DNA of 64,000 nucleotides from a virus. Location of the stretch: positions 10,538-74,537 of IMG/VR virus record IMGVR_UViG_3300025012_000956. One strand, written 5' to 3'. A model generated the notes under the pieces. The model had not been told where the DNA came from. It searched no databases and was given only the letters and a program-made list of their open reading frames with translations. Each line of letters begins with the position of its first letter. Position 1 is the stretch's first letter. Positions 3,762 to 41,492 of the stretch are shown here, piece by piece. The position numbers and the translations under genes are program-made.

Positions 3762-4778
3762 ATGAATAATTGTATAAGGATGAAAGGTAGAATAAAAAGA
3801 GGAAACTATAGTTTAGGAAGAGGATATAGTGGTTGGTATACCACTAAATATAATAAAAATGTGTTCTTACGATCTTTACAAGAATTTGTTTTCGCTAAAG
3901 AATTAGATTTTAATAAAATTCCTTTCTTAACAGAACAAACAATATTTAGGATTAACAAAGAAAATTATAAACCAGATTTTTTTATATATTCAGATAATAT
4001 ATTTAAAAACTTGATAAAAATAATAGAGTTAAAAAACTCTGAAGATGATTTTAAAAGATATTTAGATTATATTCCGTATTTTAAGAATATAAACGTAGAG
4101 TATGAATTAATAACAGGAAAGGATTTAAGAAAAAATTATATATTCTGTTCAGTTGATGATATGAATGTGTGGAGGCAGAGTAGTATAAATTCAAGTATCA
4201 TACTTTCTGGTATACATAATCCAATGTATGGAATGCACCATACAGAAGAAACAAAGAACAAAATAGGAAATAAAACTAGAGAATATATGAAGGACCCCAC
4301 CACAAAAAGAAAACATTCAGAAAATATAAAGGCATTTTGGAATAGTAGTAAATCAGATCATGTAAAGAAAAAATATAGAAAATTAAGAAAGATAGAAAAA
4401 ATAAAAAGATTAGAATTAAAAAACATATTAGATCCTATTATAAATTGTAATTGTATTATATGTGAATCAAAGTTTAAAAAAAGAAAATCATCTAAGAGAT
4501 TAACATGTTCTGGAAGTTGTGAACAAAAATATACATGGAGAATAGGTAAAAGAAAGTATGTCGATTATGCGGATATTGCAAAAAAAACATATAGAAAACG
4601 AATACTGGGTTATATGAAAATAATGAATGAAGATATAAATTTGAATAGTATGAGTACGTTGATAGATAAGTATAAAAATAATAAATTAATTCCAAATACC
4701 TTTGGGTTGAATATTAATATTATTAATAAATATTTTGGAAACTTGGACAATCTGAAACTGGAGATAAATAATGGGTAA
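3762..4778 (+). CDS. Free-standing endonuclease (TnsA_N-like PD-(D/E)XK + NUMOD3-like + CxxC) between the nrdJ halves
   Basis: LRSLQE..YKPDFF..IIELK nuclease motif, NPMYGMHHTEETKNKI repeat and C-terminal Cys motifs. Confidence 0.75.
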   Translation: MNNCIRMKGRIKRGNYSLGRGYSGWYTTKYNKNVFLRSLQEFVFAKELDFNKIPFLTEQTIFRINKENYKPDFFIYSDNIFKNLIKIIELKNSEDDFKRYLDYIPYFKNINVEYELITGKDLRKNYIFCSVDDMNVWRQSSINSSIILSGIHNPMYGMHHTEETKNKIGNKTREYMKDPTTKRKHSENIKAFWNSSKSDHVKKKYRKLRKIEKIKRLELKNILDPIINCNCIICESKFKKRKSSKRLTCSGSCEQKYTWRIGKRKYVDYADIAKKTYRKRILGYMKIMNEDINLNSMSTLIDKYKNNKLIPNTFGLNINIINKYFGNLDNLKLEINNG

Positions 4779-6477
4779 ACTATTATCTATAGAAATATGT
4801 GATAAAATAAAAAGGTTATATGATATAGAGATCAAAGACAATAATAATTTTATTGTTAATGATGGAATAGTCATACACAATTCTGAACAATACCTAAACC
4901 GAGACGGAGGATGTTTCTTAGCGTCAATAAATATGGAGAAATTCGAAACAAATTCATCAACATATAGACCTCAGTTAATTTTAATAGGAGAATCTATAAA
5001 TAGATTTTTAGATAATGTTGTTTCATGTGAATTGGTTTATCATACTTATGCAACTCCTCATCAAAGACTTTCAAATGAAATGCTAAGAAGAACAGGTGCA
5101 GGGGTTACAAATATCGGTGGGTGGTTATTTAAATTAAATTTGGAATACGGAAGTAAGATAGCAAATGAAAAAGTAGAGGAATTTTTAGATGTTTATAATT
5201 TTAGCTTATACTTATCTACTGTTAATTTAGGTAAGGAAAAAGGAAATTTTAAATTATTTGATAAAGAAAAAATACTTAAATCTAAATTTATAAAACAACT
5301 TATTAAGAGATGGCCAGAATTAACATTTAATACTATGAGAAATGTTACTGTTTCCACCATAGCTCCATGTGGCACTCTAAGTCTTATGTTCAGACATATG
5401 GGTATGGGTTATGGAGTCGAGCCATCATTTGGAATATATTATTGGAAGAGAACAAGAATAAGTGGTAAATATGAATATTATTTCATAGTTCCTTATATTG
5501 TGAGAGAAGCATTTGACACAGCAGGAATTCCTATTCCAATGAAATCAGACACTATTAAAGATACGTGGGATGGAAAATATGGTATACCAATAGCACAATT
5601 CATAGATGAAAATAAATCTAAATTAGACATACATTTTAAATCTGCAACTGAAATAAATCCATTAAATAAATTAGATTTAATGATTAGAGCAATGAAGTCA
5701 GTTGATTCTTCTATCTCAGTAACATACATGTTACCGGAGAGTAGCAACCCTAAAGATGTATATGAGTTTATATTAAAAGCACATGAAGGTGGAGTAAAAT
5801 CTATTGCTGCATTTCCTGATAGAAAAATGTATGGGATTATTTCTTATGTTCCATTTAAAGAATTAGCGAATAAATTATTATCAGAAAATACCATTATAAC
5901 ACCACAGAACTTTACTGAAGGGGAATTGCAAGAATTGAACATGTCATTAGATTTTATTAAAGCTAGTTCAGCTCCGAAGAGGCTTAAAAAATTACCAGCA
6001 GATATTTATAATATTACAGTTAAAACTGAAAAATTTATTGTTGCTATTGGTTTATTAAATGGAGCCCCATATGAAATTTTTTGCGGTAAAATGAATGGAT
6101 TAAATTTTAAATTTGTTCATAAGAAAGGTATAATTGAAAAGGTTAAACGCGGTCAATATAAATTAGATATAGGTGAAGATATTTCAGTAGAAGATTTCTC
6201 CGGATATTTTAAACCTGTAGAAGCAGAATTGTTTAGGATGGTTTCTACTGCGCTTAGACACGGCGTACCCATTAGATTTTTGGTAGAACAATTAAGTAAA
6301 TCTGCAGAAGATTTACAATCATTAACAATTGCAGCTGCTCGCGTATTGAAGAAATATATAAAGGCAGGAGAAGTAACTGGAATTCAATGTCCTCAGTGTT
6401 GTTCTTCTGTTATATATGACGAAACAGGGTGTACTACATGTACAAACTTACAATGTGGATGGGCTAAATGTTTTTAA
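4771..6477 (+). CDS. nrdJ: Split-intein C-half (4771-4881) fused to NrdJ C-terminal fragment
   Basis: YDIEIKDNNNFIVNDGIVIHN|SEQYL restores NAC-SE. Also RRTGAG, TIAPCGTLS, GVEP, SSISVT, a TSCPD-like domain and a terminal CPQC..C..CGWAKC. Confidence 0.9.
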   Translation: MGKLLSIEICDKIKRLYDIEIKDNNNFIVNDGIVIHNSEQYLNRDGGCFLASINMEKFETNSSTYRPQLILIGESINRFLDNVVSCELVYHTYATPHQRLSNEMLRRTGAGVTNIGGWLFKLNLEYGSKIANEKVEEFLDVYNFSLYLSTVNLGKEKGNFKLFDKEKILKSKFIKQLIKRWPELTFNTMRNVTVSTIAPCGTLSLMFRHMGMGYGVEPSFGIYYWKRTRISGKYEYYFIVPYIVREAFDTAGIPIPMKSDTIKDTWDGKYGIPIAQFIDENKSKLDIHFKSATEINPLNKLDLMIRAMKSVDSSISVTYMLPESSNPKDVYEFILKAHEGGVKSIAAFPDRKMYGIISYVPFKELANKLLSENTIITPQNFTEGELQELNMSLDFIKASSAPKRLKKLPADIYNITVKTEKFIVAIGLLNGAPYEIFCGKMNGLNFKFVHKKGIIEKVKRGQYKLDIGEDISVEDFSGYFKPVEAELFRMVSTALRHGVPIRFLVEQLSKSAEDLQSLTIAAARVLKKYIKAGEVTGIQCPQCCSSVIYDETGCTTCTNLQCGWAKCF

Positions 6478-18470: not shown

Positions 18471-18998
18471 ATGGGAAACAATTTATTTTTTACAAAGGTT
18501 AGAGATGTAAAATCACCTACACGTGGAACACCAGGCAGTGCCGGCATCGATTTCTATGTCCCAAAGTTTACTGAAAGTTTTATAACGGATCTTGTTAATA
18601 AAAATCCAGGTTATTATCACAGGCCAACTATTAATGGAATTGTTATGCATCCTCATGATAGAATTTTAATTCCATCTGGAATTTGCGTTAGCATACCCCA
18701 TGGGTATACTTTAATAGGTCACAATAAAAGTGGGGTAGCAAGTAAAAAAGGATTGGATATATTAGCAAGCGTTATTGACGAAGACTATCAATCTGAAATT
18801 CATTTAAATGTAGTAAATACGGGATTAACAATTCAGGATATACTTGAAGATGATAAGTTGCTTCAGTATATTTTAATTCCAGTTGTAATATCGGAAATAT
18901 TGGAAATTCCTACATTGGAGGAATTATATCCTGTAAAAACAGATCGTGGAGTCGGTGGGTTTGGTTCGACGGATGAAAGAGATGAAAGAATTGTTTAA
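18471..18998 (+). CDS. dut: Trimeric dUTPase
   Basis: GSAGIDF, KSG, VIDEDYQSEI and RGVGGFGST motifs. Confidence 0.92.
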   Translation: MGNNLFFTKVRDVKSPTRGTPGSAGIDFYVPKFTESFITDLVNKNPGYYHRPTINGIVMHPHDRILIPSGICVSIPHGYTLIGHNKSGVASKKGLDILASVIDEDYQSEIHLNVVNTGLTIQDILEDDKLLQYILIPVVISEILEIPTLEELYPVKTDRGVGGFGSTDERDERIV

Positions 18999-20170
18999 TG
19001 AGATGGGCAACTATCATACCGTTAATAGGTGGACAATCAATAGGAACATACCAATTTCTAAAGGAGGAACCAGAGGTTATTGCTTCCTTTAGACAATTTA
19101 AAAATAACGAAAGGTATTTAAAGCAGTATTGGCCATCATTTAATTATAAGATACTTGACAAAACTAATATTAATTTGAAATTAAAGAATATCGATTTTAT
19201 AAATACTTTGTGTCCATGTGCAGGGTTATCAGAATTAAATAGTGGGAAAGACTCAGAGTTAGCTCGTGGAGTCGAAGCATTACAAAACAATTGGATGTAT
19301 TTAACTGCAGAATATGTTCTGCAAAATGTTAAACCCAAGGTGTTTTATGGTGAGAATACAGATAACTTATTTTCAGGCAAAATAGGATCAGAGATATCTG
19401 ATAGGTTATATAAAATTGCTGTAGATAATGGTTATTCATTTTCGATGTTAAGAACAGATGCGAGATTTCACGGGCTTCCTCAGAAAAGAATTCGTACATT
19501 TTATTTTTTCTGGAATTCTAAACGAGCTCCTAGTATTCCTATTAATAGTTTAACCACCAATGAAGATTTAGGAATGTTTTTAGGAGAAGATTATTTAATA
19601 AATGAACAATTAAATAAGGCAACTGATAGATTAGTTAACAATATATATTATAAATATGTTATAAAAGAATTTGGTCAAGATTATAGATCTTTATATTCAG
19701 GAATTCCATTGACACTGATGGAGTTGATTGTTAAAAACAATAAGCTACTAGATTTTGAAATATTTGTCAAAGATATTATGGACCAAAAAGTTTTATTGAA
19801 AATAGAAAAACATAAAAATAAGTTAGGTTATTGGGATGACTCACCAATAATAGTAAAAGATTATACAAACTCGGCGACAAGTAGAAATATAAATACAATC
19901 CACCCTACAGAAGAAAGAATTTTAACCTTAGGTGAATGGATAAAAATTATGGGAATGCCACCACAATTTCTAACATATTTATCAGATAGAAGAACTTCAT
20001 ACTTACACTTATTTCAAAATGTTCCAGTAGATGTTGCTAGAGATGTTGCTAGATATGTCGTACAGTTTATAAATGGGGATTTAAGTTTTGCTAATACTGA
20101 TTATGTTAAGCAAGACTGGGTTACCACAAAATTTGAAGATATAGGTAAATTTAAACATTCGTTTTTTTAA
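18998..20170 (+). CDS. C5-cytosine DNA methyltransferase-like protein (divergent motif I)
   Basis: Motif I variant IIPLIGG, motif IV CPCAGLS, motif VI GEN, motif VIII HGLPQKRIRTF, and HPTEERILTLGE..IMGMP. Confidence 0.75.
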   Translation: MRWATIIPLIGGQSIGTYQFLKEEPEVIASFRQFKNNERYLKQYWPSFNYKILDKTNINLKLKNIDFINTLCPCAGLSELNSGKDSELARGVEALQNNWMYLTAEYVLQNVKPKVFYGENTDNLFSGKIGSEISDRLYKIAVDNGYSFSMLRTDARFHGLPQKRIRTFYFFWNSKRAPSIPINSLTTNEDLGMFLGEDYLINEQLNKATDRLVNNIYYKYVIKEFGQDYRSLYSGIPLTLMELIVKNNKLLDFEIFVKDIMDQKVLLKIEKHKNKLGYWDDSPIIVKDYTNSATSRNINTIHPTEERILTLGEWIKIMGMPPQFLTYLSDRRTSYLHLFQNVPVDVARDVARYVVQFINGDLSFANTDYVKQDWVTTKFEDIGKFKHSFF

Positions 20171-20180
20171 GAGGTATAAT

Positions 20181-20732
20181 ATGGAACCAAAAGTAATTGT
20201 GCTTGAAGGTCCGGATTCCGGAGGTAAAAGTACCCAAGCAAAAATGTTATTAAAATATTTATTAGATAAACCAACCTATGTAATTCATTTTTCTAATATA
20301 TCTGGAATCACTTCAGAGCAATCAAGAGAATATAGTTATAAGTTATATAATGATGCATTTGTAATGATGCAAGAAGCATATTCTAATAACAGAAATTTAA
20401 TATTTGACAGGTGTCATATCGGTGAGTATGTATATTCTCCAATATATAGAGATTATTCAGGAGATTTTATATTTGAAATAGAGAATAAATTTAAAAATAA
20501 AAACTTTTTTAAAAACGTATATCTATTTTTATTTGAAGATTTAATAGAAAATCTTATAAAGAGAGATGATGGTCATTCATTTTCTACTGAACCGGATGTT
20601 AAGATTAGGGAATTAAAACTGTTTAAAGAAGCATTTGAAAAATCTCACATTCATCATAAGTTTATAGTGAATATATTTAATTCTCCTAAAGAAGAGGTTA
20701 ATGATTTTATTGTTAAAGCATTAGGAATTTAA
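20181..20732 (+). CDS. dNMP (thymidylate-kinase-like) kinase
   Basis: VIVLEGPDSGGKSTQ P-loop and IFDRCHIGEYVY. Confidence 0.8.
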   Translation: MEPKVIVLEGPDSGGKSTQAKMLLKYLLDKPTYVIHFSNISGITSEQSREYSYKLYNDAFVMMQEAYSNNRNLIFDRCHIGEYVYSPIYRDYSGDFIFEIENKFKNKNFFKNVYLFLFEDLIENLIKRDDGHSFSTEPDVKIRELKLFKEAFEKSHIHHKFIVNIFNSPKEEVNDFIVKALGI

Positions 20733-21490
20733 TGTTAGAAGAAACATTACTTCCTTTTATTATACCAACGTTCAATTTAAATGAACTTAAAGATGAATAT
20801 TGGGAATTAATCGGTATACATAAATTTAAATATACATTACCTCAGAATTTTATAGATATGAGTGGTATAATGTTTCCCGGATTTAAATTTTCTAGTAAAG
20901 AAGCAGCTAAATTTTATGATGAAACTGTTTTAGACTTTGTAGTAAATGAATTAAAAGCATTTACAACTCCTAGAGGGAATTTAAGTAAAGAAAATAATAT
21001 AATAATGATAGGTCAAAGACCAGGTCATTTTGGTGCACATTTAAGTAAAGCAGAATCTGCTTGGTTGTTGGGTCCATCGAGTAAAATGTTGGTTAATTTA
21101 TGTAAAGAATTAAAAATATATCCATATTTTACAAACTTTTATCATTCGCACTATGTAGATCCAGATAGAGCTTGGTATAATATCTATAAGGAATTAGTTG
21201 GTATATTTACTTTATACAAAAATTTTTATAATAAATCCGATTTTAGAATCGTTTTCTTAGGTAACTATAGTGAATATGATGAATTGAAAATAGAGTTAGA
21301 AAAGCTTACAGACTTAAAATTACAATTTATTAAAATTTGGCATCCTGCATACTTGCTAAGAAACAGTAATCCTAATTTATTTAGTCAGTGGGTAACTAGT
21401 TTAGGAAGACAGTTAGTAAAAGAAGAAATTCCAGGTTATTATTTAGACCATAAATTTAAAGGTAAATACAAATATGATAAAATTATCTGA
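20732..21490 (+). CDS. Uracil-DNA glycosylase superfamily (family 4/5-like) protein
   Basis: Motif A variant MIGQRPG, YFTN, VFLG, and motif B IWHPAYLLR. Confidence 0.6.
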   Translation: MLEETLLPFIIPTFNLNELKDEYWELIGIHKFKYTLPQNFIDMSGIMFPGFKFSSKEAAKFYDETVLDFVVNELKAFTTPRGNLSKENNIIMIGQRPGHFGAHLSKAESAWLLGPSSKMLVNLCKELKIYPYFTNFYHSHYVDPDRAWYNIYKELVGIFTLYKNFYNKSDFRIVFLGNYSEYDELKIELEKLTDLKLQFIKIWHPAYLLRNSNPNLFSQWVTSLGRQLVKEEIPGYYLDHKFKGKYKYDKII

Positions 21491-22088
21491 TATTATTAAT
21501 TATTTAATTCAACAGAATAATTTTAATTCTTATTTAGAAATAGGAGTATCAACTGGAGTTTGTTTCGGTGCAGTAAATTGTAAATTTAAAGATGTCGTAG
21601 ATCCTGTTAAACAAACGTCTGATGTTAATTATAATATGACGTCCGATGCGTTTTTCAAAGTGGTCGACCCTAATAAAAAATATGATGTAATATTAATTGA
21701 TGGGTTGCACACCACAGAACAGGTATTAAAAGATTATAATCATTCATTATCTCACCTATCAGAAACTGGATATATTTTACTGGATGATACTTGTCCGTAT
21801 GATGAATCTTGGGTAATCCCAGAAGGAAATCCTGGTGGCTGGTGTGGTACTATATATAAGTTTATGATCGATCTTGCGTATAATAACTGTGATATTAATT
21901 ATAATACGGTTTTTGTACCCCATGGACATACAATAATAACAAGAGGAAAACGAGAACCCTTGTATCTTCAATATTCTGATGATTGGTCATTCTTTGATAG
22001 ATATAGATCTGTTATATTAAACTTAATTTCAGAAGAAGATTTTTATATGATGTACATGAAAAAACAAAATGAAACTAGCAGTTATTAA
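21474..22088 (+). CDS. Class I SAM-dependent methyltransferase (Methyltransf_24-like)
   Basis: YLEIGVSTG, YDVILIDGLH and GYILLDD. Confidence 0.8.
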   Translation: MIKLSDIINYLIQQNNFNSYLEIGVSTGVCFGAVNCKFKDVVDPVKQTSDVNYNMTSDAFFKVVDPNKKYDVILIDGLHTTEQVLKDYNHSLSHLSETGYILLDDTCPYDESWVIPEGNPGGWCGTIYKFMIDLAYNNCDINYNTVFVPHGHTIITRGKREPLYLQYSDDWSFFDRYRSVILNLISEEDFYMMYMKKQNETSSY

Positions 22089-23190
22089 ATTTGGTGGCAG
22101 AATGAATGCCAATGCAGATGGTGCAGTTGGTGGTGAGGTAATGGCTGCGATTGATCTATTAGTTAGAGGTGACAATGAAGTACATTACTATACACATATT
22201 AATAATAAAGATGTTGCACTACCAGGTGCACACGGTCAGAATATAGAATATTTTGGCAATGATACTAGTTTTGATGCATTAATAGTAATAAATGGTAATA
22301 TAAATTATTATGGTGGTGCTGAACCGGAACTCGAGATGAAAAATTTAAGATTGCTCAATTCTTTTCCGGGAAAAGTTTTCTATATAATGTTTGATCCTAT
22401 GCTACCACTTCGACAACATTGGAAAGGTGTAAGTAATAAGCAAGAAAAATATAAGTGGAATAATAAATATTCTAAAGAAGAAATAGAAATAGTTAGAGAT
22501 GATATTATTTATATTTCACAGCCGTATGACCTAACAGCAGTTAGAGAAATGTTAGATGGTTTAGGAGTACCTTATAAGGATGTATTACACTATCCTTTAT
22601 ATAAAATGCATTTAGTATTTTATGATAGGTTACTTAAAATAAAATCGCCATCAGGAGAATATAGAACTGTAGATTTGACATACGGTGGTACTTTTAGAAA
22701 TAAAAAACGAGAAGATAAACTTATAAAATTTTATTTTGGGTACCCATGTACTGTCAATGTTGAGATATTTGGTAAGATTAAGCTATCAGACTTCAATAAG
22801 AATAAGATAAAAGGACTGAGAGCACCTTTATTTACTGGACAAATTAAACATAATCTAGTTCGACGGAAGATGTCTAGGGCATATGCCACTGTATCAATTG
22901 GCGATAAGTGGTATGAAGGTAGAAATCTAGCACAGCGAATTTATGAAAGTATATTATCAAATTGTATTACATTTATTGATGAAGAATTAGATCCTCAACA
23001 CGTAGTATATGGAGAAGAATTGCCTAAATTTTATGTTAAAGATAGGGATCAGGTTCTTGAGCAACTATTATTAATTAAAATATTTGAGGAAAAATTTGAT
23101 GAAATACTTGATCAACAATATGATATAGTAAAGATAGATAAACAAGAATTTGTAAACGGATTAACTAATCTCATAGGTAATAATTTATGA
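22069..23190 (+). CDS. T4 beta-glucosyltransferase-like DNA glycosyltransferase
   Basis: Full-length similarity to T4 BGT as recalled: LIVINGNINYYGG (LIVVNSSINFFGG), MFDPMLP (catalytic D100, FTDIRLP), YGGTFRNKKREDK (YGGSFRSGQRESK), APLFTGQI, IGDKWY, QRIYES (LRVWET), FIDEELD. Confidence 0.88.
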   Translation: MKLAVIKFGGRMNANADGAVGGEVMAAIDLLVRGDNEVHYYTHINNKDVALPGAHGQNIEYFGNDTSFDALIVINGNINYYGGAEPELEMKNLRLLNSFPGKVFYIMFDPMLPLRQHWKGVSNKQEKYKWNNKYSKEEIEIVRDDIIYISQPYDLTAVREMLDGLGVPYKDVLHYPLYKMHLVFYDRLLKIKSPSGEYRTVDLTYGGTFRNKKREDKLIKFYFGYPCTVNVEIFGKIKLSDFNKNKIKGLRAPLFTGQIKHNLVRRKMSRAYATVSIGDKWYEGRNLAQRIYESILSNCITFIDEELDPQHVVYGEELPKFYVKDRDQVLEQLLLIKIFEEKFDEILDQQYDIVKIDKQEFVNGLTNLIGNNL

Positions 23191-23238: not shown

Positions 23239-25050
23239 ATGATAAAAACAGATAAAATAAAAATAGTAATATTTTCAGGTGGGCACGGTGCCTCTAATAT
23301 TCTAGAAGGATTATATGCGTTAGATAAAACCGGAGAAGCACTTCAGATAACTCAAATTGTCAATGGACTAGATGATGGGGCATCAGGTGGAATTGTAAGA
23401 AGAGTAATGAATGTACTGTGTCCTGGAGATTTAAGAAAAAATCAATTTAAACATTATTGCCTTACTCATAAAGGAAACGTGAATATGGCGATTGTTGAAT
23501 TTTGTGACAAGCGATATGATTTGACTCTTGGTTCTGAATTACATGATGTGTTAAAACTATTAGATATTTGGGATTTTCCAGAAAAATTATTATTTAAAGA
23601 ATTAGCAACTAAATTCTTTAGTGTAGCGAGTTCTTTTAAAGAAAAATTTAATTTCTTCGGAATCAATATCTCAAATATTATATATGCATCTATGATTAAT
23701 AGTATTGGATATGATGAAACGTTTAAGTATTTTAAGAAGTTCTTTGGGATAAAACATGACGTAATGTTGATATCAGAAGATAATTTACAGTTGCGTGCGA
23801 TCACTAAAGACTGGACACTAATAGAAACAGAAACTCCTGGAATAATAAAACATAATAATAAAGAAAATTATATTATGGATATATTATTTGAACGATTTAA
23901 TCCTCTTAGTTCTAAATCTGAACATACGACTGCGTTAGCATCAAAGATAATAATATATTCTGAAGAAAAAATAAAAGACGCAGATTTAATTATATTTGCA
24001 CCTGGTACTCAATGGAGTTCTTTAATTCCAACATATGCTACAGTTGGACTAGATGATGTATTGAAGAAATCTAAGGCTAAAAAGATTTTAATAATGAATA
24101 ATGATGAAGATGGAGATTCAATAGGAAGAACTGCGGGTGATTTACTAAATAGTATATCAAAATATTTAACATTAGATAATATAAATATATTTATTAATAA
24201 TCTTGCCAGTGAGCCACTTCAGAATATAGAAAATTTTAAAAATAAAAACAATATAACGATCTATATTAAGGTATTAGGTCATGGTTTAGCTAGATCATCT
24301 AAAACTGTAGAAGAAATATTTAAGCTATATTATAATTTAACTAAACCTGATTTTATATTCTGTGATTTTGATGATACTATTTATTCTAGAGATCCAACAC
24401 ACAGTAAGATTTCAGAAGAAAATTTGATTTTATTGGATAAAATTTCTAAAAAAATTCCTACTATTATTGTTTCAGGTAATGATTATGAAACTATTCACAG
24501 TAAACTAATTAAGAATTTTGGAAGTTCTGGTCTAAATAATATTAAATTTGATATCTGGGCAGATGGTGGTTTAGTTAAATATGAACAGGGTATACCCGTT
24601 ATAAGAACAGCACTTTTGGACAATACTAAAGAAACACTGTCTTATTTACAAGGCGACATACTGGGTTTACCTAAAGATAAAATATTTCTTAGAGGTGATT
24701 GGCCAAAACAAGATATAAAAAATATTACGTGTATAGGAATAAAACCTCTTACGGAATTAGAAAAAACGTTATTGATAAATATTTTAAATATATTTTTTAA
24801 AGAAAATCGCTTTTATAATGTTGCCAAAAGAATAGGTTTAACTGGTATAGATATTATATCTGTTAATAGTGACAAGAAAAAAGTTTTACATTATTATAAT
24901 TCATCATATGGAAAAACTACATTGTACATAGGAGATGAATTGAGAGATGGAAATGATGAAAATATTTCTAGTGCATGTAATTTTAAATATAATGTTAAAT
25001 CACCATATGACACAAATATACTGTTACAACTAATAAATGAGGAATTGTAA
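23239..25050 (+). CDS. CofD/YvcK(GlmR)-family domain fused to a HAD-IIB phosphatase/phosphomutase domain
   Basis: N-terminal FSGGHG, DDGASGG, PGDLRK, ADLIIFAPGTQWSSLIP; C-terminal DFDDT, VSG, YIGDELRDGND. Confidence 0.8.
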   Translation: MIKTDKIKIVIFSGGHGASNILEGLYALDKTGEALQITQIVNGLDDGASGGIVRRVMNVLCPGDLRKNQFKHYCLTHKGNVNMAIVEFCDKRYDLTLGSELHDVLKLLDIWDFPEKLLFKELATKFFSVASSFKEKFNFFGINISNIIYASMINSIGYDETFKYFKKFFGIKHDVMLISEDNLQLRAITKDWTLIETETPGIIKHNNKENYIMDILFERFNPLSSKSEHTTALASKIIIYSEEKIKDADLIIFAPGTQWSSLIPTYATVGLDDVLKKSKAKKILIMNNDEDGDSIGRTAGDLLNSISKYLTLDNINIFINNLASEPLQNIENFKNKNNITIYIKVLGHGLARSSKTVEEIFKLYYNLTKPDFIFCDFDDTIYSRDPTHSKISEENLILLDKISKKIPTIIVSGNDYETIHSKLIKNFGSSGLNNIKFDIWADGGLVKYEQGIPVIRTALLDNTKETLSYLQGDILGLPKDKIFLRGDWPKQDIKNITCIGIKPLTELEKTLLINILNIFFKENRFYNVAKRIGLTGIDIISVNSDKKKVLHYYNSSYGKTTLYIGDELRDGNDENISSACNFKYNVKSPYDTNILLQLINEEL

Positions 25051-25806
25051 ATGTTGGGCCTAATTCTCTGTGCGGGTAAACAAACCAGATTTAATTCTGG
25101 AGTACCTAAGGCATTAATGCCTTATAATAAAGATAAAACTATTTTAGGTAAAAATATAGAAACTATGATAGAATTCGTAAATGATATTATTTTAGTACTT
25201 AATAAAGATAATAATAATACTTTATATGAGGAATATGCTAATAATTTTGTTAGGATTATAGAAATAGAATCAGGTCATGGAAGTGGAGATGCTATCCTTC
25301 AAATATTTAATCAGTTGAAGACTGTAGAAGAAATATTCGCAGACATTTTTTTAATCTGGGGTGATTCTATACAAGACAGTACTGCTCTATATAGAACTAC
25401 ATTAAATAATTATAATGATTATTGCACGGTTCCTATTAGATTAGAAAATGAACCCTATACTCATTTTGTATGTGATCATGATAATATTATCAAGTCAGTG
25501 GAATTTAAAAACAGAGGTGCTAAATATATTCAAGGTTACCATGATTTTTCTCTATTTTTATTTAATTTAGTTAAAATGAATGTTATTTTAGATTCTTATA
25601 ATTTAATGAAATGGTTACCGGAGAATAATAAATATGATACAATAAATGGTGAATTTGAATTTTTAGATATATTTAACCAATTTAATTATCTAGAATTTGC
25701 AAAAGCTGTTATAATTGATAATATAAAATCTAACAATGCATTCAATACAATGGAAGAATATTTGAAATTAATTAATGGGGTTACAGATGAGAATAGTAAG
25801 CAATAA
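25051..25806 (+). CDS. Sugar-phosphate nucleotidyltransferase (NTP transferase)
   Basis: LILCAGKQTRF..PKALM, GSGDAI and LIWGD. Confidence 0.82.
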   Translation: MLGLILCAGKQTRFNSGVPKALMPYNKDKTILGKNIETMIEFVNDIILVLNKDNNNTLYEEYANNFVRIIEIESGHGSGDAILQIFNQLKTVEEIFADIFLIWGDSIQDSTALYRTTLNNYNDYCTVPIRLENEPYTHFVCDHDNIIKSVEFKNRGAKYIQGYHDFSLFLFNLVKMNVILDSYNLMKWLPENNKYDTINGEFEFLDIFNQFNYLEFAKAVIIDNIKSNNAFNTMEEYLKLINGVTDENSKQ

Positions 25807-26689
25807 TTTTGCAGAAATATATAAAGATCTATTAACAACAATATATTATAATCCAGATCATATTATTTCTCCACGAGAATACCAGACAAAAGAGTGTTGT
25901 AATGTTGAATTAGTTTTAACAGATCCAACTTCAAACTTATTTACAAATAAAATTAGAAGTCCTAAGTTAAATTATTTATATCCTGAATTGTTATACTATT
26001 TTTTAGGTAGAAATGATTTAGAATTTATTTCTAAATATTCTACTTTCTGGAATAAAATAGCAAATAATGATAGAACTGTAAATAGTGCATATGGATATCT
26101 TTTATTTAGAGAGAGGAATATACATGGCTGGACAGAATATCAATGGGCATTTAATTCACTTATTGTAGATAAAAATTCTAGGCAAGCTATTTTAAGATTT
26201 AATAAACCAGAACACTCATATTTAGATAATAAGGATTTTGTGTGTACATTGAATGGTATATTTCATATCAGAAAAAATAAAGAATTAAACTGTGATGTAT
26301 TAAATTTTACAACAACAATGAGATCACAAGATGTTTGGTTTGGAATTATATATGATATTCCTTTTTATACTTTGTTGCAGCAACAAATGTTAAATCATTT
26401 AAAACAAGAAAAATATCCTGATTTACAGCTTGGTAAATATACTCATTATATATTAAGTGAACATATATATAAAAAAGATTTTGAAAATATAGAAAAAATG
26501 CTAAATGAAGAATTTATATCGGACAGTACTCCGTTACTAGTTAAAAATTTAATAGAACCCAGTGGTAATCCAACGCAAGAATTATATTTAATATTACAAA
26601 CAGTAGAAAATAATAATGAGTATACAGATTTTGGAGATGAACTAATAAATAAAATAGTAAAATTTTCTTTAAGGGAAAACAATGAATAA
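25775..26689 (+). CDS. dCMP-specific thymidylate-synthase homologue (T4 gp42 dCMP hydroxymethylase-like)
   Basis: VNSAYG, SRQA, catalytic DFVCT, and MRSQDVWFGIIYD with Asp at the position that is Asn in dUMP-specific ThyA. Confidence 0.82.
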   Translation: MGLQMRIVSNNFAEIYKDLLTTIYYNPDHIISPREYQTKECCNVELVLTDPTSNLFTNKIRSPKLNYLYPELLYYFLGRNDLEFISKYSTFWNKIANNDRTVNSAYGYLLFRERNIHGWTEYQWAFNSLIVDKNSRQAILRFNKPEHSYLDNKDFVCTLNGIFHIRKNKELNCDVLNFTTTMRSQDVWFGIIYDIPFYTLLQQQMLNHLKQEKYPDLQLGKYTHYILSEHIYKKDFENIEKMLNEEFISDSTPLLVKNLIEPSGNPTQELYLILQTVENNNEYTDFGDELINKIVKFSLRENNE

Positions 26690-27146
26690 ACAACAGAGAT
26701 TAGATAAAATATTTATTAATATTGCACTGGAATTTGCAACATTATCTCATTGTGTTACTTATAAAGTGGGCGCAGTTGCAGTTAATGATAATAGGATTAT
26801 TGCTACAGGAATTAATGGTACTCCAGAAGGAATGTTAAACTGCGATCGAGTATTTAAAAATTATAATTCTGAGACAGATAGAGAAGAACACCATATGTGG
26901 AGTGAAATACATGAGCTCCACGCTGAATTAAATGTTATACTTTTTTGTGCAAAAAACGGAATTTCATTAAAAGGAACAACAGTTTATTCTACTGTTCAAC
27001 CATGTCAACAGTGTCTGAAAAATATGTTGCAATGTGGTATAGTAAGAATAGTTTATAAATACCCATATGACAAAGCAGTTGAAAGTAAACTTATAAAAGA
27101 ATATATGAAAGAAAAAAATATAATAATAGAACAAATAGAGGAGTAA
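26682..27146 (+). CDS. dCMP deaminase
   Basis: VGAV, TGINGTP, HAELN and PCQQC. Confidence 0.92.
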   Translation: MNKQQRLDKIFINIALEFATLSHCVTYKVGAVAVNDNRIIATGINGTPEGMLNCDRVFKNYNSETDREEHHMWSEIHELHAELNVILFCAKNGISLKGTTVYSTVQPCQQCLKNMLQCGIVRIVYKYPYDKAVESKLIKEYMKEKNIIIEQIEE

Positions 27147-29351: not shown

Positions 29352-29564
29352 ATGAATATAGGAGATGAGAAACTAACAACTGTTAGGGTATCTGTAAATG
29401 AATATGATAAATTTAAAATAAACTGCATAAAACAAAAAACAAATTTTAAAAAAGTAGTAGCTAAGATGCTTCATTTGATTAATAATTACGAAGATATAAA
29501 GTACTTGATGACAACTGATATTTTATATGTTTCAGGTAGTTTAAATTTAGGAGATGATGTATGA
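29352..29564 (+). CDS. Small ribbon-helix-helix-like DNA-binding protein
   Basis: LTTVRVSVNEYDKFKINC..NFKKVV; heads the glycosyltransferase gene train. Confidence 0.5.
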   Translation: MNIGDEKLTTVRVSVNEYDKFKINCIKQKTNFKKVVAKMLHLINNYEDIKYLMTTDILYVSGSLNLGDDV

Positions 29565-31009
29565 TAATAAATGGATATGAGTACATACCAAGAGAACAAA
29601 GAAAGCACATATTACTTCTTAGTGATGATCTCCGAATGAGTTCAGGGGTAGGAACAGCATCTAGAACATTTGTTATGGGAACAGCTCATAGATTTAATTG
29701 GTTTCAATTGGGTACTGCAATCAATCATCCAGAGATGGGTAAAAGATTTGATCTATCCCAAGACTTAAATAATAGATTGGGAATAACAGATGCTCAGGTA
29801 ATGGTACAACCTCATAATAATTATGGAGATCCAGACTTAATAAGAATGCTATTACATGAGTTTAAGTTTGATGCAATAATGCACTTCACAGATCCAAGAC
29901 AGTGGCTTTGGTTATATAATATGGAACATGAAATTAGGTTACAAATGCCCATATTTTTTTACCACGTTTGGGATAATTTACCATATCCTGAATATAATAA
30001 AACATATTATCAATCGTGTGATTGGATTGCGTGTATAAGTAAACAAACAGAAAATATTGTAAAGAATGTTTGGAATGAATTTGGACCAGAAGATTGGCAA
30101 GTTACATATATACCCCATGGTATAGATGAAAAAGAATATTACCCCACAACAGAACTAGAACCTGGGTTAAACAGAGAGGTTGAGGGTCATATTAAAACTG
30201 ATTATGATATGATGTTAGATATGAAAAAGAAGATATTTGGAGAAAATGAGTTCGACTTTATAGTATTTTATAATAATAGGAATATAAGAAGAAAAAGTCC
30301 ATCGGATATTATATTGGCATTTGTAGAATTATTAAAATCTTTACCTAAAGAAAAAGCAGATAAGTGTGCCTTACTTATGCACACTCATGTTGTAGATTTT
30401 AATGGTACAGATTTGAATGAGGTTAGGAATATGGTTGGACGTGGCTGGGAAAGAAATATTCATTTTCATGAGACTAAAGTTAATCCTATAGAATTAAATT
30501 ATCTTTATAATATGAGTGATATCACAATAAACATAGCTGCCGCAGAGGGATTTGGATTATCAACTGCGGAATCATTGATGGCGGGTGTGCCAATTTTAGC
30601 AACTGTTACAGGTGGATTACAAGATCAAATGGGATTTAAAGATGAAAACGGAAAATATATAAAGTTTACAAAGGACTTTGGTAGCAATCACGATGGCAAA
30701 ATAAAAGGTACTCATGGTGAATGGGTATTTCCTATATTCCCAGCAGCTAGAAGCTTAGTTGGATCTCCTCCTACACCATATATATTTGATGATAGAGTAC
30801 GATGGGAAGATACGGGAATATTGTTAAGGGAAATTTATGATTTGGGTAAAGATGAATTAAGAAGACGTGGGTTAGAAGGAAGAAAGTTTGTATTAAAAGA
30901 AGAAGTTGGAATGAGTGCTAGCAATATGTGTAATAGATTTATTACTGGAATGGAAAAGGCCTGGGAAAAATGGAAACCTAGAAATAGGTACAGCATAATT
31001 AAATTTTAA
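29561..31009 (+). CDS. GT-B (GT4-like) glycosyltransferase
   Basis: IPHGID, RNIRRK, EGFGLSTAESL..G.PI and TGGLQDQ. Confidence 0.88.
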   Translation: MIINGYEYIPREQRKHILLLSDDLRMSSGVGTASRTFVMGTAHRFNWFQLGTAINHPEMGKRFDLSQDLNNRLGITDAQVMVQPHNNYGDPDLIRMLLHEFKFDAIMHFTDPRQWLWLYNMEHEIRLQMPIFFYHVWDNLPYPEYNKTYYQSCDWIACISKQTENIVKNVWNEFGPEDWQVTYIPHGIDEKEYYPTTELEPGLNREVEGHIKTDYDMMLDMKKKIFGENEFDFIVFYNNRNIRRKSPSDIILAFVELLKSLPKEKADKCALLMHTHVVDFNGTDLNEVRNMVGRGWERNIHFHETKVNPIELNYLYNMSDITINIAAAEGFGLSTAESLMAGVPILATVTGGLQDQMGFKDENGKYIKFTKDFGSNHDGKIKGTHGEWVFPIFPAARSLVGSPPTPYIFDDRVRWEDTGILLREIYDLGKDELRRRGLEGRKFVLKEEVGMSASNMCNRFITGMEKAWEKWKPRNRYSIIKF

Positions 31010-31034: not shown

Positions 31035-31163
31035 ATGGACAAAATTAAACATTATATAGTATATAAAACAACTAATCTAGTTAATGGTAAAATTTATATA
31101 GGAATACATTCTACTTTTAATTTATCAGACATAAATAATAAATTGGAGTATAATTATGAATAA
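31035..31163 (+). pseudogene. GIY-YIG (Seg-like) endonuclease remnant, 42 codons
   Basis: MDKIKHYIVYKTTNLVNGKIYIGIHST followed by an abrupt end. Confidence 0.7.
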
Positions 31164-32505
31164 ACCACTGTTATTATGTATTTCTCCTGTTAGAGCTCGG
31201 GCCGGGTACGGGTCGCATTCTAGAGATATCGTGCGTTCTTTGATTAAATTAAACAAATATGATATTAAAATTTTAAGTATTCGTTGGGGTACAACACCGT
31301 TAAATGTATTAAAACCTGGTATTGATGATGATATTTTAAGTAGACTTCTTTTAAGACCAGAATTATCTAAGAAACCTGAGATAACTGTTCAAATTTCGGT
31401 TCCAAATGAATATAATGGTGACTTAGGTTTGTTTAATATAGGAATAACAGCTGGTGTTGAAACAACAATTTGTTCTCCTCAGTGGTTAGAGGGGTTGAAT
31501 AGAATGAATTTTAATATAGTGCCATCTAAATCTGCTAAAAGCGTATTTGAAAATTCTGTGTATGGTAAAAAAGATCAAATGGGTAATATAGTTTCAGAAC
31601 TTCGATGTCAGAAGCCTATTTATGTTCTATTTGAAGGTGTAGATACAAATGTATTTAAGAGAAACGAAAATATTACTGGAAATATTAAAAGAAAGTTAAA
31701 TGAATTTCCAGAAGATTTTCTTTTCTTATTTGTAGGTCACTGGTTGAATGGTGAATTGGGTGCAGATAGAAAAGATACAGGTATGTTAATTAAAATATTT
31801 TTGGAAACATTTAAGAATAAATTAAATAAACCTGCACTATTACTTAAGACTGGAAATACTTTTTCTTATACTGAAAGACAGGAATTATTAGCTAAAGTTA
31901 ATAGAATAAAAAATGTGATACAGGGGGATTTGCCAAATATATATATACTGTTTGGTGATCTGACTCAAGAAGAAATGAATGATTTGTATAACCATACAAA
32001 AGTCAAAGTTCATATAACATTTACAAAAGGTGAGGGATTTGGACGTCCACTATTAGAGGCTAGTTTAAGTGAGAAACCGATAATCGCTAGTGGGTGGAGT
32101 GGTCATTTAGATTTTTTGCCAAAAGAAAAAGCAATATTATTGCCAGGTACTATATCCCAAGTTCATCCAAGTGCAGTTTGGAATGGAGTTATTGAACCAA
32201 ATTCTCAGTGGTTTAATGTAAATTATTCATATGCTTCTAACATAATGACTGATGTTTGGAAAAATTATCAGAAATATGTACCTATGGCAAAGTTATTAGC
32301 ACAAGAAAACAAAGAAAAATTTTCATTAGATAAGATGGTAGAAGAATTAGATAAATTATTTAATGAACATGTTCCAAAATTCGCAGAACAAAAAACTTTT
32401 AATATTCCACAGTTACCTCGTTTAACACCAATTAAAATAAAAAATGAAGGTAAAGAAGATAATAAGGAAACAGAAGAAATTAAAGAAGTACAAGAAAAAC
32501 AATAA
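31156..32505 (+). CDS. GT-B (GT4-like) glycosyltransferase
   Basis: GYGSHSRD, FLFVGHW..DRK and KGEGFGRPLLEA..PIIASGWSGHLDF. Confidence 0.88.
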   Translation: MNKPLLLCISPVRARAGYGSHSRDIVRSLIKLNKYDIKILSIRWGTTPLNVLKPGIDDDILSRLLLRPELSKKPEITVQISVPNEYNGDLGLFNIGITAGVETTICSPQWLEGLNRMNFNIVPSKSAKSVFENSVYGKKDQMGNIVSELRCQKPIYVLFEGVDTNVFKRNENITGNIKRKLNEFPEDFLFLFVGHWLNGELGADRKDTGMLIKIFLETFKNKLNKPALLLKTGNTFSYTERQELLAKVNRIKNVIQGDLPNIYILFGDLTQEEMNDLYNHTKVKVHITFTKGEGFGRPLLEASLSEKPIIASGWSGHLDFLPKEKAILLPGTISQVHPSAVWNGVIEPNSQWFNVNYSYASNIMTDVWKNYQKYVPMAKLLAQENKEKFSLDKMVEELDKLFNEHVPKFAEQKTFNIPQLPRLTPIKIKNEGKEDNKETEEIKEVQEKQ

Positions 32506-35002: not shown

Positions 35003-35680
35003 ATGGAGAACAAAATGGAAACAATAAGTTATGCAGTATTAGTAAAAGATGAAGTTGAAGAAATTTCTAGACTTATAAAATTGCTGAGTCAATATAAAAA
35101 TGGTGATGAAATAGTCGTAGTTCAAGATATAAGTACGGAAACTGAAAATACGAAGAAAGTAAAAGAGGTGTTAACAAATTTAATTTTAACAAGTAAGATT
35201 ACAGATTTGTCATGGTATAAATTTGATGGAGATTATTCTAATATTAAAAACTTTTTAATATCTAAATGTGTGAATAATTGGATATTTAATATAGATGCAG
35301 ATGAATATCCAGATGTTTCTTTATTAGACAGTTTACATTCTATTTTAGAATCAAATTCTGGCGTAGAATTATTTTGGGTACCCAGAATAAATATTGTAAA
35401 AGGATTAACAGAACAACATATAAAGGAGTGGCGATGGGTAATGAGTAATATAGAAGGGGTTGCTGATGAACAAGTTGTGAATTTTCCAGATTATCAAGGT
35501 AGAATATTCCGAAATAATAAACAAATCAAATGGAAATATAGGGTACATGAAGTTATAATCGGAAATACAAATTATGTGCAGTTACCACCTGAACGAGAGT
35601 TTGCACTGTGGCACATAAAAGACATACAGCGACAGGTTTTTCAAAACGAATATTATAAAACAATAAAAAGGATTGAATAA
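35003..35680 (+). CDS. GT2 glycosyltransferase
   Basis: ISYAVLVKDE, WIFNIDADE, PRIN, PDYQGRIF and VHE. Confidence 0.85.
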   Translation: MENKMETISYAVLVKDEVEEISRLIKLLSQYKNGDEIVVVQDISTETENTKKVKEVLTNLILTSKITDLSWYKFDGDYSNIKNFLISKCVNNWIFNIDADEYPDVSLLDSLHSILESNSGVELFWVPRINIVKGLTEQHIKEWRWVMSNIEGVADEQVVNFPDYQGRIFRNNKQIKWKYRVHEVIIGNTNYVQLPPEREFALWHIKDIQRQVFQNEYYKTIKRIE

Positions 35681-39765: not shown

Positions 39766-40710
39766 ATGAATAATATAATATGTACGGGGGGTGTGGGATT
39801 TATAGGGTCTCATTTAGTAGAAAGGTTATTAAAAGAAACAGATGCTCCAAAAATATATATTGTCGATAATTTGGTACGGACACATTCGTTGAGGAATATT
39901 CAGTATTTACTATTTGATCCAAGAGTTGAATTCATTTATGGTGATATTTCCACAATTAAATATGAAACCTATTTTAATCCACCTGACATAGATTGGGTTT
40001 TTCATTTAGCTGCAACTCGTATCAACAGATGTAATAGTTATAATTTAGAAGGACATCAATATATTGCAACAGGTGGAGCAAGATTAATAGATTGGGTAAG
40101 TAAATACCATATCAAAATATTTTTTGCGAGTAGTGCAAGTGTGTATCAATCACCAAAAACGTTGCCTATTAAAGAAGAAGATCCTTGCAATCCACACACA
40201 ATATATGGGGCTGGAAAATTATATACTGAAAATTTATTGAGAAGTTATCATATATTATATGGCCTAGAGTATGTAATAAATCGATTTTTTAGCGTATATG
40301 GTGAACGAATTGATTCCGAAGGAAGTTATACTGAAATAATATTTAATTTTTTTAATCAAATAAAAAAAGGAAAAACTGACATAACTTTATATGGAAATCC
40401 AGATGAAAAGATTTTAGATTTAATTTATGTAGATGACGTCGTCAATGCTATTTTATTGACTATGAAAAAATCAAAAAATGATGCATTTAATGTTTCTACT
40501 CAGACTGGGATAACACTCACAGAGTTAGTAAGCTTAATAGAAAGTATAACTAACACTAGATTGAATAAAATAATATTACCAGAGAAAAGAACAGATATAG
40601 AGTTAAAACGAATAGGTGATGTTTATAAATTAAAAAATTTAGGTTGGCAATTAAATACTACAATAGAATCTGGATTAACTAAAACGTGGAATTGGATAAA
40701 AAATTTATGA
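39766..40710 (+). CDS. NAD-dependent NDP-sugar epimerase/dehydratase (extended SDR)
   Basis: TGGVGFIGSH, FHLAA, ASSASVY, YGAGK and DLIYVDD. Confidence 0.9.
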   Translation: MNNIICTGGVGFIGSHLVERLLKETDAPKIYIVDNLVRTHSLRNIQYLLFDPRVEFIYGDISTIKYETYFNPPDIDWVFHLAATRINRCNSYNLEGHQYIATGGARLIDWVSKYHIKIFFASSASVYQSPKTLPIKEEDPCNPHTIYGAGKLYTENLLRSYHILYGLEYVINRFFSVYGERIDSEGSYTEIIFNFFNQIKKGKTDITLYGNPDEKILDLIYVDDVVNAILLTMKKSKNDAFNVSTQTGITLTELVSLIESITNTRLNKIILPEKRTDIELKRIGDVYKLKNLGWQLNTTIESGLTKTWNWIKNL

Positions 40711-41492
40711 AAAAGAAAAAATTTTTTAGGATATGTCCTAAGTGTGGAAATAAAGTTTGGCATACTCAAAAAAACCATAGAAACAGTGCTGATAAAAATA
40801 AAAAAATATGTAATAAATGTTCAACCCGAGGAGAAAAAAACGGATTTTATAATAAAAAACATTCTATAGAAACAATTGAAAAGATATCCATGAATACTAA
40901 GTTGGCTATGAAGAAACCTGAAGTTTTTGAAAAAATTAAAAAATATCACGATGATATTAAAAATAAAACTTATAAGGAAAGATATGGTAAAGAAAAATCA
41001 ATAGAAATTAGAAATAAACAAAGTAAATCAATTAAGGGAATGTTCAGTGGAGATAAACATTATCAATTTGGAAAAAAACAAAGTAGAGAAATTATTGAAA
41101 ATAGAATATTAAAAAATACTGGTAAAAAAAGAACTAAGGAGCAAATAGAAAATATAAGAAATTCATTGGTTGGAAGAACACTTTCTAGGGAACATATAAA
41201 GCGTCTTCGTTTGGCTGTCATAAAAAGAATAGAAGATAGACATGGTACCATATTTCCAAATTATAATATAGAAGCATGCAAAATCATAGAAGAATATGGT
41301 AAAGAAAATGGCTATAATTTACAGCATGCTGAAAATGGTGGAGAATACTACATCAAAGAACTTGGATATTTTTTAGATGGTTATGATAAAAATAAAAATG
41401 TTGTGATAGAATATTATGAAAGACATCACTATACGCTTGGTAATTTAAGAGAAAAAGATTTAAAAAGAAATTATTCAACAACTTGGTTGTAA
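40686..41492 (+). CDS. PD-(D/E)XK endonuclease (repeated family; likely start 40708; C-terminal tail frameshifted near 41465)
   Basis: RICPKCG, NUMOD3 repeats, [26 protein letters not shown]. The tail IIQQLGCKFIRINAFDK continues in another frame. Confidence 0.72.
   Translation: MELDKKFMKKKKFFRICPKCGNKVWHTQKNHRNSADKNKKICNKCSTRGEKNGFYNKKHSIETIEKISMNTKLAMKKPEVFEKIKKYHDDIKNKTYKERYGKEKSIEIRNKQSKSIKGMFSGDKHYQFGKKQSREIIENRILKNTGKKRTKEQIENIRNSLVGRTLSREHIKRLRLAVIKRIEDRHGTIFPNYNIEACKIIEEYGKENGYNLQHAENGGEYYIKELGYFLDGYDKNKNVVIEYYERHHYTLGNLREKDLKRNYSTTWL

Follow-up and report, generated by a model that had tools for sequence, protein, structure and literature searches.

Why should a virus carry, among genes for a modified DNA base, a protein in which a CofD/YvcK-like domain is joined to a phosphomannomutase (PMM)-like HAD domain? 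The question is raised by a 64,000-nucleotide stretch of DNA (the window; positions 10,538 to 74,537 of IMG/VR virus record IMGVR_UViG_3300025012_000956), in which a gene for such a fusion (23239..25050, + strand, 603 aa) is followed at once by a gene for a nucleotidyltransferase (25051..25806, + strand, 251 aa). Taking together the identities of the domains, the conservation of their catalytic residues and the linkage of the genes, we consider it probable that the two proteins form a supply line of activated sugar, as nucleoside diphosphate (NDP)-hexose, for the glycosylation of 5-hydroxymethylcytosine (hmC) in phage DNA.

The fusion is defined by its open reading frame (ORF), by full-length homologues and by an AlphaFold2 model. 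Its N-terminal CofD/UPF0052 (YvcK-like) part, assigned by the Pfam family PF01933, profile comparison and Foldseek, comprises residues 1 to ~364 including a linker helix (23239..24330, + strand), with the CofD/YvcK fold itself spanning residues 1-345. The C-terminal HAD-IIB, PMM-like domain, assigned by profile comparison with PMM structures, comprises residues 366-603 (24334..25050, + strand). The motifs on which the original prediction, made by a model from the letters alone, had based the two domains were all located: SGGHG at residues 13-17, DDGASGG at 45-51, PGDLR at 62-66 and APGTQWSSLIP at 254-264 of the first domain, and DFDDT at 376-380 and GDELRDGND at 565-573 of the second. The AlphaFold2 model, built on the alignment of the 24 full-length homologues that make up our family profile (A1), was confident (pLDDT 91, pTM 0.89). 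Foldseek searches with this model returned YvcK structures first and then PMMs, with matches for the N-terminal domain including 2hzb (E 2e-14) and 3c3d (E 1e-7), and both folds proposed at the outset were thereby recovered. Since catalytic residues are invariant in both domains across homologues that are 26-57% identical, the motifs of the fusion are far beyond chance.

The proposed resemblance of the HAD domain to PMMs gained strength once family profiles were used (E ~1e-15). As a single sequence, the C-terminal part alone reached E 3e-4 against PF03332 (PMM), with 21.1 bits vs a cut-off of 22.4. The C-terminal half of the family profile matched PMM2, PMM1, protozoan PMMs and the atypical alpha-phosphoglucomutase (alpha-PGM) of L. 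lactis along their entire length, with E-values of 1e-15 to 1e-10, and the C-terminal profile alone gave 7myv at 1.4e-15, PMM2 at 4.5e-13 and L. lactis alpha-PGM at 1.7e-12. Trehalose-phosphate phosphatases scored far below the PMMs in the family-profile search.

All four HAD motifs are present, namely D376/D378/T380, S412-G413-N414, K546 and G565-D566-E567..G571-N572-D573, and residues D376, D378, T380, K546, G565, E567 and G571 are invariant in 36 diverse members. S/T412-G-N is kept across the HAD members, D566, N572 and D573 are retained in viral and Christensenellales-type members, and the DxDxT, S/T-G-N, K546 and GDE..GND elements align with PMM2. In the cap, two basic positions (K502 and R/K509) are conserved, and a HMMER alignment puts them on the distal-phosphate segment of PMMs ('SPIG..EER'); conservation at these positions would fit a mutase and a bisphosphate phosphatase alike. 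The domain shares with eukaryotic-type PMMs and L. lactis alpha-PGM the full-length profile alignment, the four motifs and the basic cap residues, and differs from them by its fusion to a CofD fold, by a Pfam score just under the cut-off and by the first cap arginine, R485, which is absent from some subgroups. In a Lachnospiraceae-type subgroup (L048-L067), where the gene order is NTP-transferase then fusion within polysaccharide clusters, motif IV is altered (D566N, N572A/S, D573E) together with R384E, and the HAD domain of these members may have a different chemistry or none.

The partner encoded downstream is predicted, from its match to PF12804, its profile and its linkage, to be a GlmU-N-terminal-like sugar-phosphate nucleotidyltransferase that is translationally coupled to the fusion. 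As had been noticed at first reading, its ATG (25051) abuts the stop codon TAA of the fusion (25048-25050). A GAGGA element lies 8 nt upstream of this ATG, within the fusion gene, an arrangement which on sequence grounds is the layout of translational coupling. A complex prediction for the two proteins scored 0.00 vs a mark of 0.32, an outcome that counts neither in favour of binding nor against it.

By itself, the nucleotidyltransferase matched PF12804 (MobA-like NTP transferase) with 33.6 bits vs a cut-off of 27. A profile of 33 nucleotidyltransferase homologues was closest to the GlmU uridyltransferase domain (E 1.8e-14), followed by archaeal dual sugar-1-phosphate nucleotidyltransferases, IspD and TarI. 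No CofC match was obtained for the window protein or among the profile matches of its family; a distant cellular homologue (L113) matched CofC at E 0.004, under the cut-off. Residues G9, R13, K20, D105 (of a WGD motif) and N232, the last of which we take to be the equivalent of GlmU N227, are invariant in the 33 sequences, so that the G-x-G-x-R...K signature and the metal-binding aspartate (D105) are both present. A kinase domain was not found in the 251 residues. Searches of phage records by tblastn with this protein gave no match; the profile detects the gene in phage RsoM2USA and in record LR756500.

The original prediction had left two readings of the gene pair side by side. Of these, the short pathway from a sugar phosphate over the sugar-1-phosphate to the NDP-sugar fits best with a PMM-type HAD domain and a GlmU-like nucleotidyltransferase. 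The other, a CofC/CofD-like pair that builds a phosphodiester, found no CofC-type enzyme in the window protein or its family profile, and kept some ground through the aspartates of the CofD-like domain described below.

For that domain, PF01933 (CofD) covers residues 9-334 (E 7.6e-27, 94.7 bits vs cut-off 30). The family profile matched five solved YvcK-type structures at 2e-29 to 1e-21 (2ppv and 2hzb at 2e-29), and true CofD only at E 0.004. YvcK/GlmR proteins of Firmicutes and Actinobacteria are thus the best match to residues 1-345 in sequence and structure, with the DD motif and the G-rich loop kept; the window domain differs from them by its PMM-like fusion, its GlmU-like partner and its viral encoding. 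Three established identities were considered and rejected. A true YvcK/GlmR is opposed by TIGR01826 (92.1 bits vs cut-off 196) and by gene context, the yvcJ-glmR-whiA operon being absent and the neighbours being a beta-glucosyltransferase (BGT) homologue and the nucleotidyltransferase. A true CofD (F420 2-phospho-L-lactate transferase) is opposed by TIGR01819 (15.2 bits vs cut-off 257), by a partner that is GlmU-like and not CofC-like and by the absence of an F420 context, and a GAK-system CofD-like protein by TIGR04357 (49 bits vs cut-off 340). Since the NCBIfam YvcK, GAK-system and CofD scores are all far under their cut-offs, the domain is best classed as a separate branch of the CofD/UPF0052 superfamily.

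Residues G14, G15, G17, D45, D64, R66, K67, T257, W259, S260, S261, N287, D291 and D293 are invariant in the CofD-like domain. The catalytic metal ligands of M. smegmatis FbiA are D45 and D57 (PMC7253369). With the numbering of the FbiA orthologue fixed against PDB 6uvx, hhalign to the family profile puts D45 and D64 of the family on these GDD/PDLD aspartates, at a probability of only 42%; the placement agrees with both the fold and the PF01933 match. The Listeria GlmR requires its DD motif for a reported uridyltransferase activity, and GlmR is reported to form UDP-GlcNAc from GlcNAc-1-phosphate and UTP and to bind UDP-sugars (PMC10128056). The conserved metal site argues for a catalytic role of the CofD-like domain in the viral family as well.

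The genes around this cassette suggest what its product is for. Directly upstream lies a homologue of T4 BGT, a DNA glycosyltransferase (22069..23190, + strand; PF09198, 52.4 bits vs cut-off 27; phrog_7922, E 1e-52). Downstream are a predicted 5-hydroxymethyl-dCMP synthase, that is, a cytosine hydroxymethylase of the thymidylate synthase (TS) family recognized by MilA and gp42 matches (25775..26689, + strand), and a dCMP deaminase (26682..27146, + strand; PF00383, E 3.5e-20). A thymidylate-kinase-like deoxynucleoside monophosphate (dNMP) kinase is encoded at 20181..20732 (+ strand; phrog_761, E 4e-18) and has homologues near the cassette in 17 loci. The TS homologue has MilA CMP hydroxymethylase (8.5e-17) and T4 gp42 (3.9e-7) as its best PDB matches. 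It retains the catalytic Cys, has an Asp at the position of gp42 D179, and has Asp, not Asn, at the position of ThyA-169. 5-Hydroxy-dCMP synthases carry Asn at the latter position (PMC13326640), and a 5-hydroxycytosine (5hoC) pathway was rejected on this diagnostic residue. Given this reading of the TS homologue together with the dNMP kinase, the dCMP deaminase and the BGT homologue, the predicted gene block is a T4-type hmC system and not a 5hoC one.

This arrangement is not peculiar to one contig. We fetched 115 loci, comprising 33 IMG/VR loci, 80 genome loci and two phage records, and counted linkage by phmmer of the window proteins against the ORFs of all 115; the 33 IMG/VR loci had been gathered with an alignment-based search, a single-sequence query with the fusion having matched none there. 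The nucleotidyltransferase directly adjoins the fusion in 32 of the 33 IMG/VR loci. Of 35 phage loci, 29 have a BGT homologue within 8 kb of the fusion, mostly as the gene directly upstream, and none of 35 bacterial loci has one; genes for dNMP kinases and TS-family enzymes are also often found nearby. One viral contig (L031) shows a different division of the same parts, with CofD standing alone and the HAD fused to the nucleotidyltransferase. Relatives of the fusion number at least 229 in a 90%-clustered collection and form 138 clusters at 50% identity (E < 1e-30) among 1.84 billion representatives, and its Atlas clusters are mostly viral. Most of an ESM Atlas cluster of structure-similar CofD-domain proteins (~773 aa, 13% with NTP_transf_3) was assigned to Nucleocytoviricota; a related module may be present in giant viruses of eukaryotes.

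The cassette also occurs in a cultured phage, the jumbo Ralstonia phage RsoM2USA (MG752970.1). Here the fusion is gp1 (29-1888), annotated as hypothetical in the GenBank record, gp2 is a BGT homologue and the nucleotidyltransferase is the last gene (343050-343805), so that the three genes adjoin one another once the arbitrary ends of the linear record are joined. The RsoM2USA genome paper gives ORF2 as a beta-glucosyltransferase, DNA modification being outside its scope. No account of the cassette was found in the literature searched, including the jumbo-phage survey of Iyer et al. and the RsoM2USA paper, and no published link was found between CofD/YvcK and phage DNA modification, in keeping with the original description of the fusion as an uncharacterised enzyme.

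Outside viruses, the same parts are found in other company. The nucleotidyltransferase adjoins the fusion in all bacterial fusion loci examined. In Christensenellales-type gut metagenome-assembled genomes (MAGs) the pair follows a membrane glycosyltransferase (GT) gene of family GT2 amid ribosomal and glycolytic genes, and on one such contig GT2 is fused to the pair. In MAGs of Lachnospiraceae and others, the pair is part of polysaccharide clusters that also encode GT2, GT8, Wzx-type flippases, acyltransferases and LicD. The initial expectation of a tie to DNA-modification genes holds for the phage copies, which are tightly linked to BGT/hmC genes, whereas the bacterial copies lie in surface-glycan contexts free of such genes.

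Further cellular proteins combine these domains in other orders. NTP-transferase–CofD–GT2 fusions were found in a Bdellovibrionales MAG, a Moraniibacteriota (CPR) MAG and an unclassified bacterial MAG, and an HAD–NTP-transferase–CofD–GT2 fusion in a Nanoarchaeota MAG, its HAD belonging to the beta-phosphoglucomutase (beta-PGM) family (TIGR02009, 150 bits vs cut-off 153). Woesearchaeota MAGs have an HAD–NTP-transferase gene and then a CofD–GT2 gene, and SAR86 has a GT2–CofD gene and then an NTP-transferase gene. Multi-domain proteins with MobA-like NTP transferase, CofD-like and GT2 domains, some with a beta-PGM-family HAD, were seen at eight loci (L085, L088, L098, L099, L103, L106, L108 and L073), and the DPANN-archaeal MAGs with such proteins include Nanoarchaeota, Pacearchaeota and Woesearchaeota; no description of this architecture was found in the literature searched. 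The order of the domains thus varies, but the same four activities, those of a nucleotidyltransferase, a CofD-like domain, a glycosyltransferase and an HAD from a family that includes mutases, stay associated, which is strong evidence that they belong to one pathway ending in glycosyl transfer. Most likely, the phage cassette was borrowed from bacterial and archaeal surface-glycan pathways.

From these data we infer what each enzyme does, which kind of sugar is handled and how the CofD-like domain contributes, as follows. The TS-family enzyme (25775) would produce 5-hydroxymethyl-dCMP, which the dNMP kinase and the phage polymerase would place in DNA. The PMM-like HAD domain would convert hexose-6-phosphate to hexose-1-phosphate via an aspartyl-phosphate and a bisphosphate intermediate or, alternatively, would trim hexose-1,6-bisphosphate to the 1-phosphate. 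The GlmU-like enzyme would then form NDP-hexose from hexose-1-phosphate and NTP, and the BGT homologue would move the hexose to the hydroxyl group of hmC, where GT4 and GT2 enzymes encoded downstream may extend it. The CofD-like domain would act as a Mg-dependent phosphoryl or nucleotidyl transferase on the same pool of sugar phosphates and sugar nucleotides, most likely in an entry step (sugar phosphorylation) or in an accessory nucleotidyl transfer resembling the uridyltransferase activity of GlmR. As predictions, the mutase and nucleotidyltransferase steps are well supported. With a donor cassette of its own between the genes for BGT and hydroxymethylase, the phage may place a sugar other than glucose on hmC.

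T4 glucosylates hmC with the help of gp42 (dCMP hydroxymethylase), gp1 (dNMP kinase), the cd deaminase and beta-glucosyltransferase. Counterparts of all four lie in one block of the window, the hydroxymethylase having Asp at the gp42 D179 position; the difference is the three-domain donor cassette, which stands between the BGT and hydroxymethylase genes here and in 29 of 35 phage loci. The nearest precedent for such a cassette is the phage UDP-arabinofuranose route for arabinosyl-5hoC (RB69, DLP3, HY126), which comprises a KdsD-like isomerase, the nucleotidyltransferase-kinase AfhE, the HAD phosphatase AfhF and Aat transferases (PMC13326640). Both combine, for an NDP-sugar made by the phage, a nucleotidyltransferase, an HAD and a third phosphoryl-transfer domain beside a TS homologue and a DNA glycosyltransferase. 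However, the Afh HAD is GmhB-like whereas the HAD in the window is of PMM type IIB, and the third domain of the Afh route is a kinase fold fused to the nucleotidyltransferase, whereas here it is a CofD/YvcK fold fused to the HAD. The Afh TS homologue carries the D169N signature, which the window homologue lacks, and the window transferase is BGT-like. No SIS-domain (KdsD-like isomerase) gene was found among the window proteins scanned, a scan that covered part of the ORFs.

Several points weigh against a supply line for DNA glycosylation. T4 runs the same BGT reaction on UDP-glucose taken from the host, having no genes for donor synthesis. Domains of the HAD-IIB and beta-PGM families are phosphatases more often than they are mutases. 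A mutase and a nucleotidyltransferase would suffice to make NDP-hexose, so that the CofD-like domain is not required and its step in the scheme is a guess. The closest relative (L003) has no nucleotidyltransferase beside the fusion on the covered part of the contig. Finally, the window contains a separate sugar island with a GDP-mannose 4,6-dehydratase (GMD), two DegT proteins and about seven GTs, and the product of the cassette could therefore serve targets other than DNA.

The CofD-like domain would gain a necessary role if the pair followed the logic of CofC/CofD. In that case the nucleotidyltransferase would make an NDP-linked phospho-compound, a sugar-1-phosphate or another, and the CofD-like domain would transfer its phospho-group with release of NMP and formation of a phosphodiester; the acceptor would be a sugar already on hmC, or hmC itself, and the PMM-like domain would merely supply the 1-phosphate. 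For this fold, no other chemistry has been established from both structure and mechanism; FbiA/CofD attack the beta-phosphate of a GMP-linked donor (PMC7253369). As in CofC/CofD (FbiD/FbiA), a nucleotidyltransferase of MobA-like fold stands beside a CofD-fold transferase in which both metal-binding aspartates of FbiA are invariant, and fusions of CofD-like domains to MobA-like NTP transferases and to GT2, themselves group-transfer enzymes, recur. However, the domain is far nearer to YvcK (2e-29) than to CofD (4e-3), its partner is GlmU-like and not CofC-like, and the mutase-like fusion partner suggests small sugar phosphates rather than DNA as substrate. We know of no phosphodiester-linked sugar as the final form of a DNA base, and found none reported. 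We regard CofC/CofD-like chemistry as rather unlikely. Its boldest form, in which the CofD-like domain moves hexose-1-phosphate from NDP-hexose onto the sugar of glycosyl-hmC or onto hmC and creates a phosphodiester-linked, teichoic-acid-like hypermodification of DNA, is in our view unlikely. If it were true, the cellular NTP-transferase–CofD–GT2 fusions would make up a class of soluble phospho-sugar transferases, acting in glycan synthesis, that has so far gone unrecognised.

Conversely, the CofD/YvcK-like domain could be a non-enzymatic sensor of sugar nucleotides that regulates the fused mutase, the pathway consisting of mutase and nucleotidyltransferase. Such a role is suggested by YvcK/GlmR proteins being the nearest solved relatives, with B. 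subtilis GlmR described as a UDP-GlcNAc-binding regulator of GlmS (PMC7525490, PMC6171935), and by a pathway whose chemistry is complete without the domain. Against a sensor, phages rarely retain a 360-residue domain that is purely regulatory, yet the domain is present, fused or separate, in every locus examined, and its residues matching the catalytic metal ligands are invariant. Moreover, of the two residues (Y265 and R301) which the Listeria GlmR paper cites as essential for UDP-GlcNAc binding by B. subtilis GlmR (PMC10128056), Y265 may, to judge by the YvcK motif, correspond to W259 in the present family. The subthreshold NCBIfam YvcK score (92 bits vs cut-off 196) and the missing yvcJ-glmR-whiA context also speak against a sensor, which we judge to be decidedly unlikely.

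The sugar-nucleotide and glycosylation island of the window spans 29561-58193. It starts with two GT4 genes (29561-31009 and 31156-32505, + strand) and a GT2 gene (35003-35680, + strand), assigned by Pfam and, for the GTs, phrog_2170. These are followed by genes for an SDR epimerase/dehydratase (39766), a GFO/IDH/MocA oxidoreductase (42064), two DegT aminotransferases (43559 and 51543), two methyltransferases (44703 and 47851), a Glyco_trans_1_2 protein (45590), a GT10-like protein (48581), a true GMD (53457-54467; 7e-93 to human GMD) and a second GT2 (56949). NUMOD3 and HNH homing-endonuclease-like ORFs are inserted in the island at 40686-41492 and 52706-53473. In a related viral contig (L012:10587-15265), homologues of the two GT4 genes and the GT2 gene at 29561, 31156 and 35003 directly follow the nucleotidyltransferase, and the trio may act in the same modification pathway, for example by building a chain of several sugars on the base. 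With GMD in the window and this trio following the cassette in L012, the sugar may be mannose and the glycans on the base may be longer. No second nucleotidyltransferase (PF00483) was found in the 74.5-kb record, a weak negative, since the PF12804 search missed the 25051-25806 protein itself.

That the cassette instead feeds this island, for example with GDP-mannose for GMD, and so decorates virion proteins or the host surface rather than DNA is very unlikely: the GMD, the two DegT proteins, the SDR epimerase, the methyltransferases and about seven GTs in the window, the failure to detect another nucleotidyltransferase, the PMM-like HAD and the service of cellular cassettes in surface glycans would all suit such a use, but the cassette stands within the hmC block and coupled to BGT both here and in 28 further phage loci, all 28 of them lacking a GMD orthologue within 8 kb, the negative for a second nucleotidyltransferase comes from a family search that overlooked the cassette's own enzyme in a record covering only ~37% of the genome, and DNA and glycan uses are not mutually exclusive.

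Some further features of the window concern the block and the genome at large. A UDG-fold protein (20732..21490, + strand) was assigned by a weak match under the cut-off (PF03167, E 0.0026), and has homologues beside the cassette in L012 (2e-58) and in a second locus (L025). The hmC block also contains a C5-cytosine-methyltransferase-like gene (18998-20170) and a Methyltransf_24 gene (21474-22088). GC content is low (~27%) across the window, and the long ORFs are all on the + strand. CheckV estimates the completeness of the source record at ~37%, from which the complete phage probably has a size of around 200 kb. The ORFs 2381-3697 and 4771-6477 match successive halves of the large subunit of ribonucleotide reductase (phrog_84 positions 196-489 and 501-973), in agreement with separate split-gene and split-intein notes on the window from its first reading.

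Glycosylation of bases determines which restriction, CRISPR and glycosylase defences a phage escapes, and sugar donors made by the phage itself have been shown only recently, for arabinosyl-5hoC. As a supply line of NDP-hexose for hmC, the cassette would be a second, unrelated and widespread donor module, present on dozens of viral contigs, in one cultured jumbo phage and possibly in giant viruses. The poorly understood YvcK/CofD-like fold also acquires a clear biochemical setting, being always accompanied, in phages, bacteria and DPANN archaea, by a nucleotidyltransferase, a glycosyltransferase and an HAD of phosphosugar-mutase type, and this setting bears on the unsettled question of catalysis by GlmR/YvcK.

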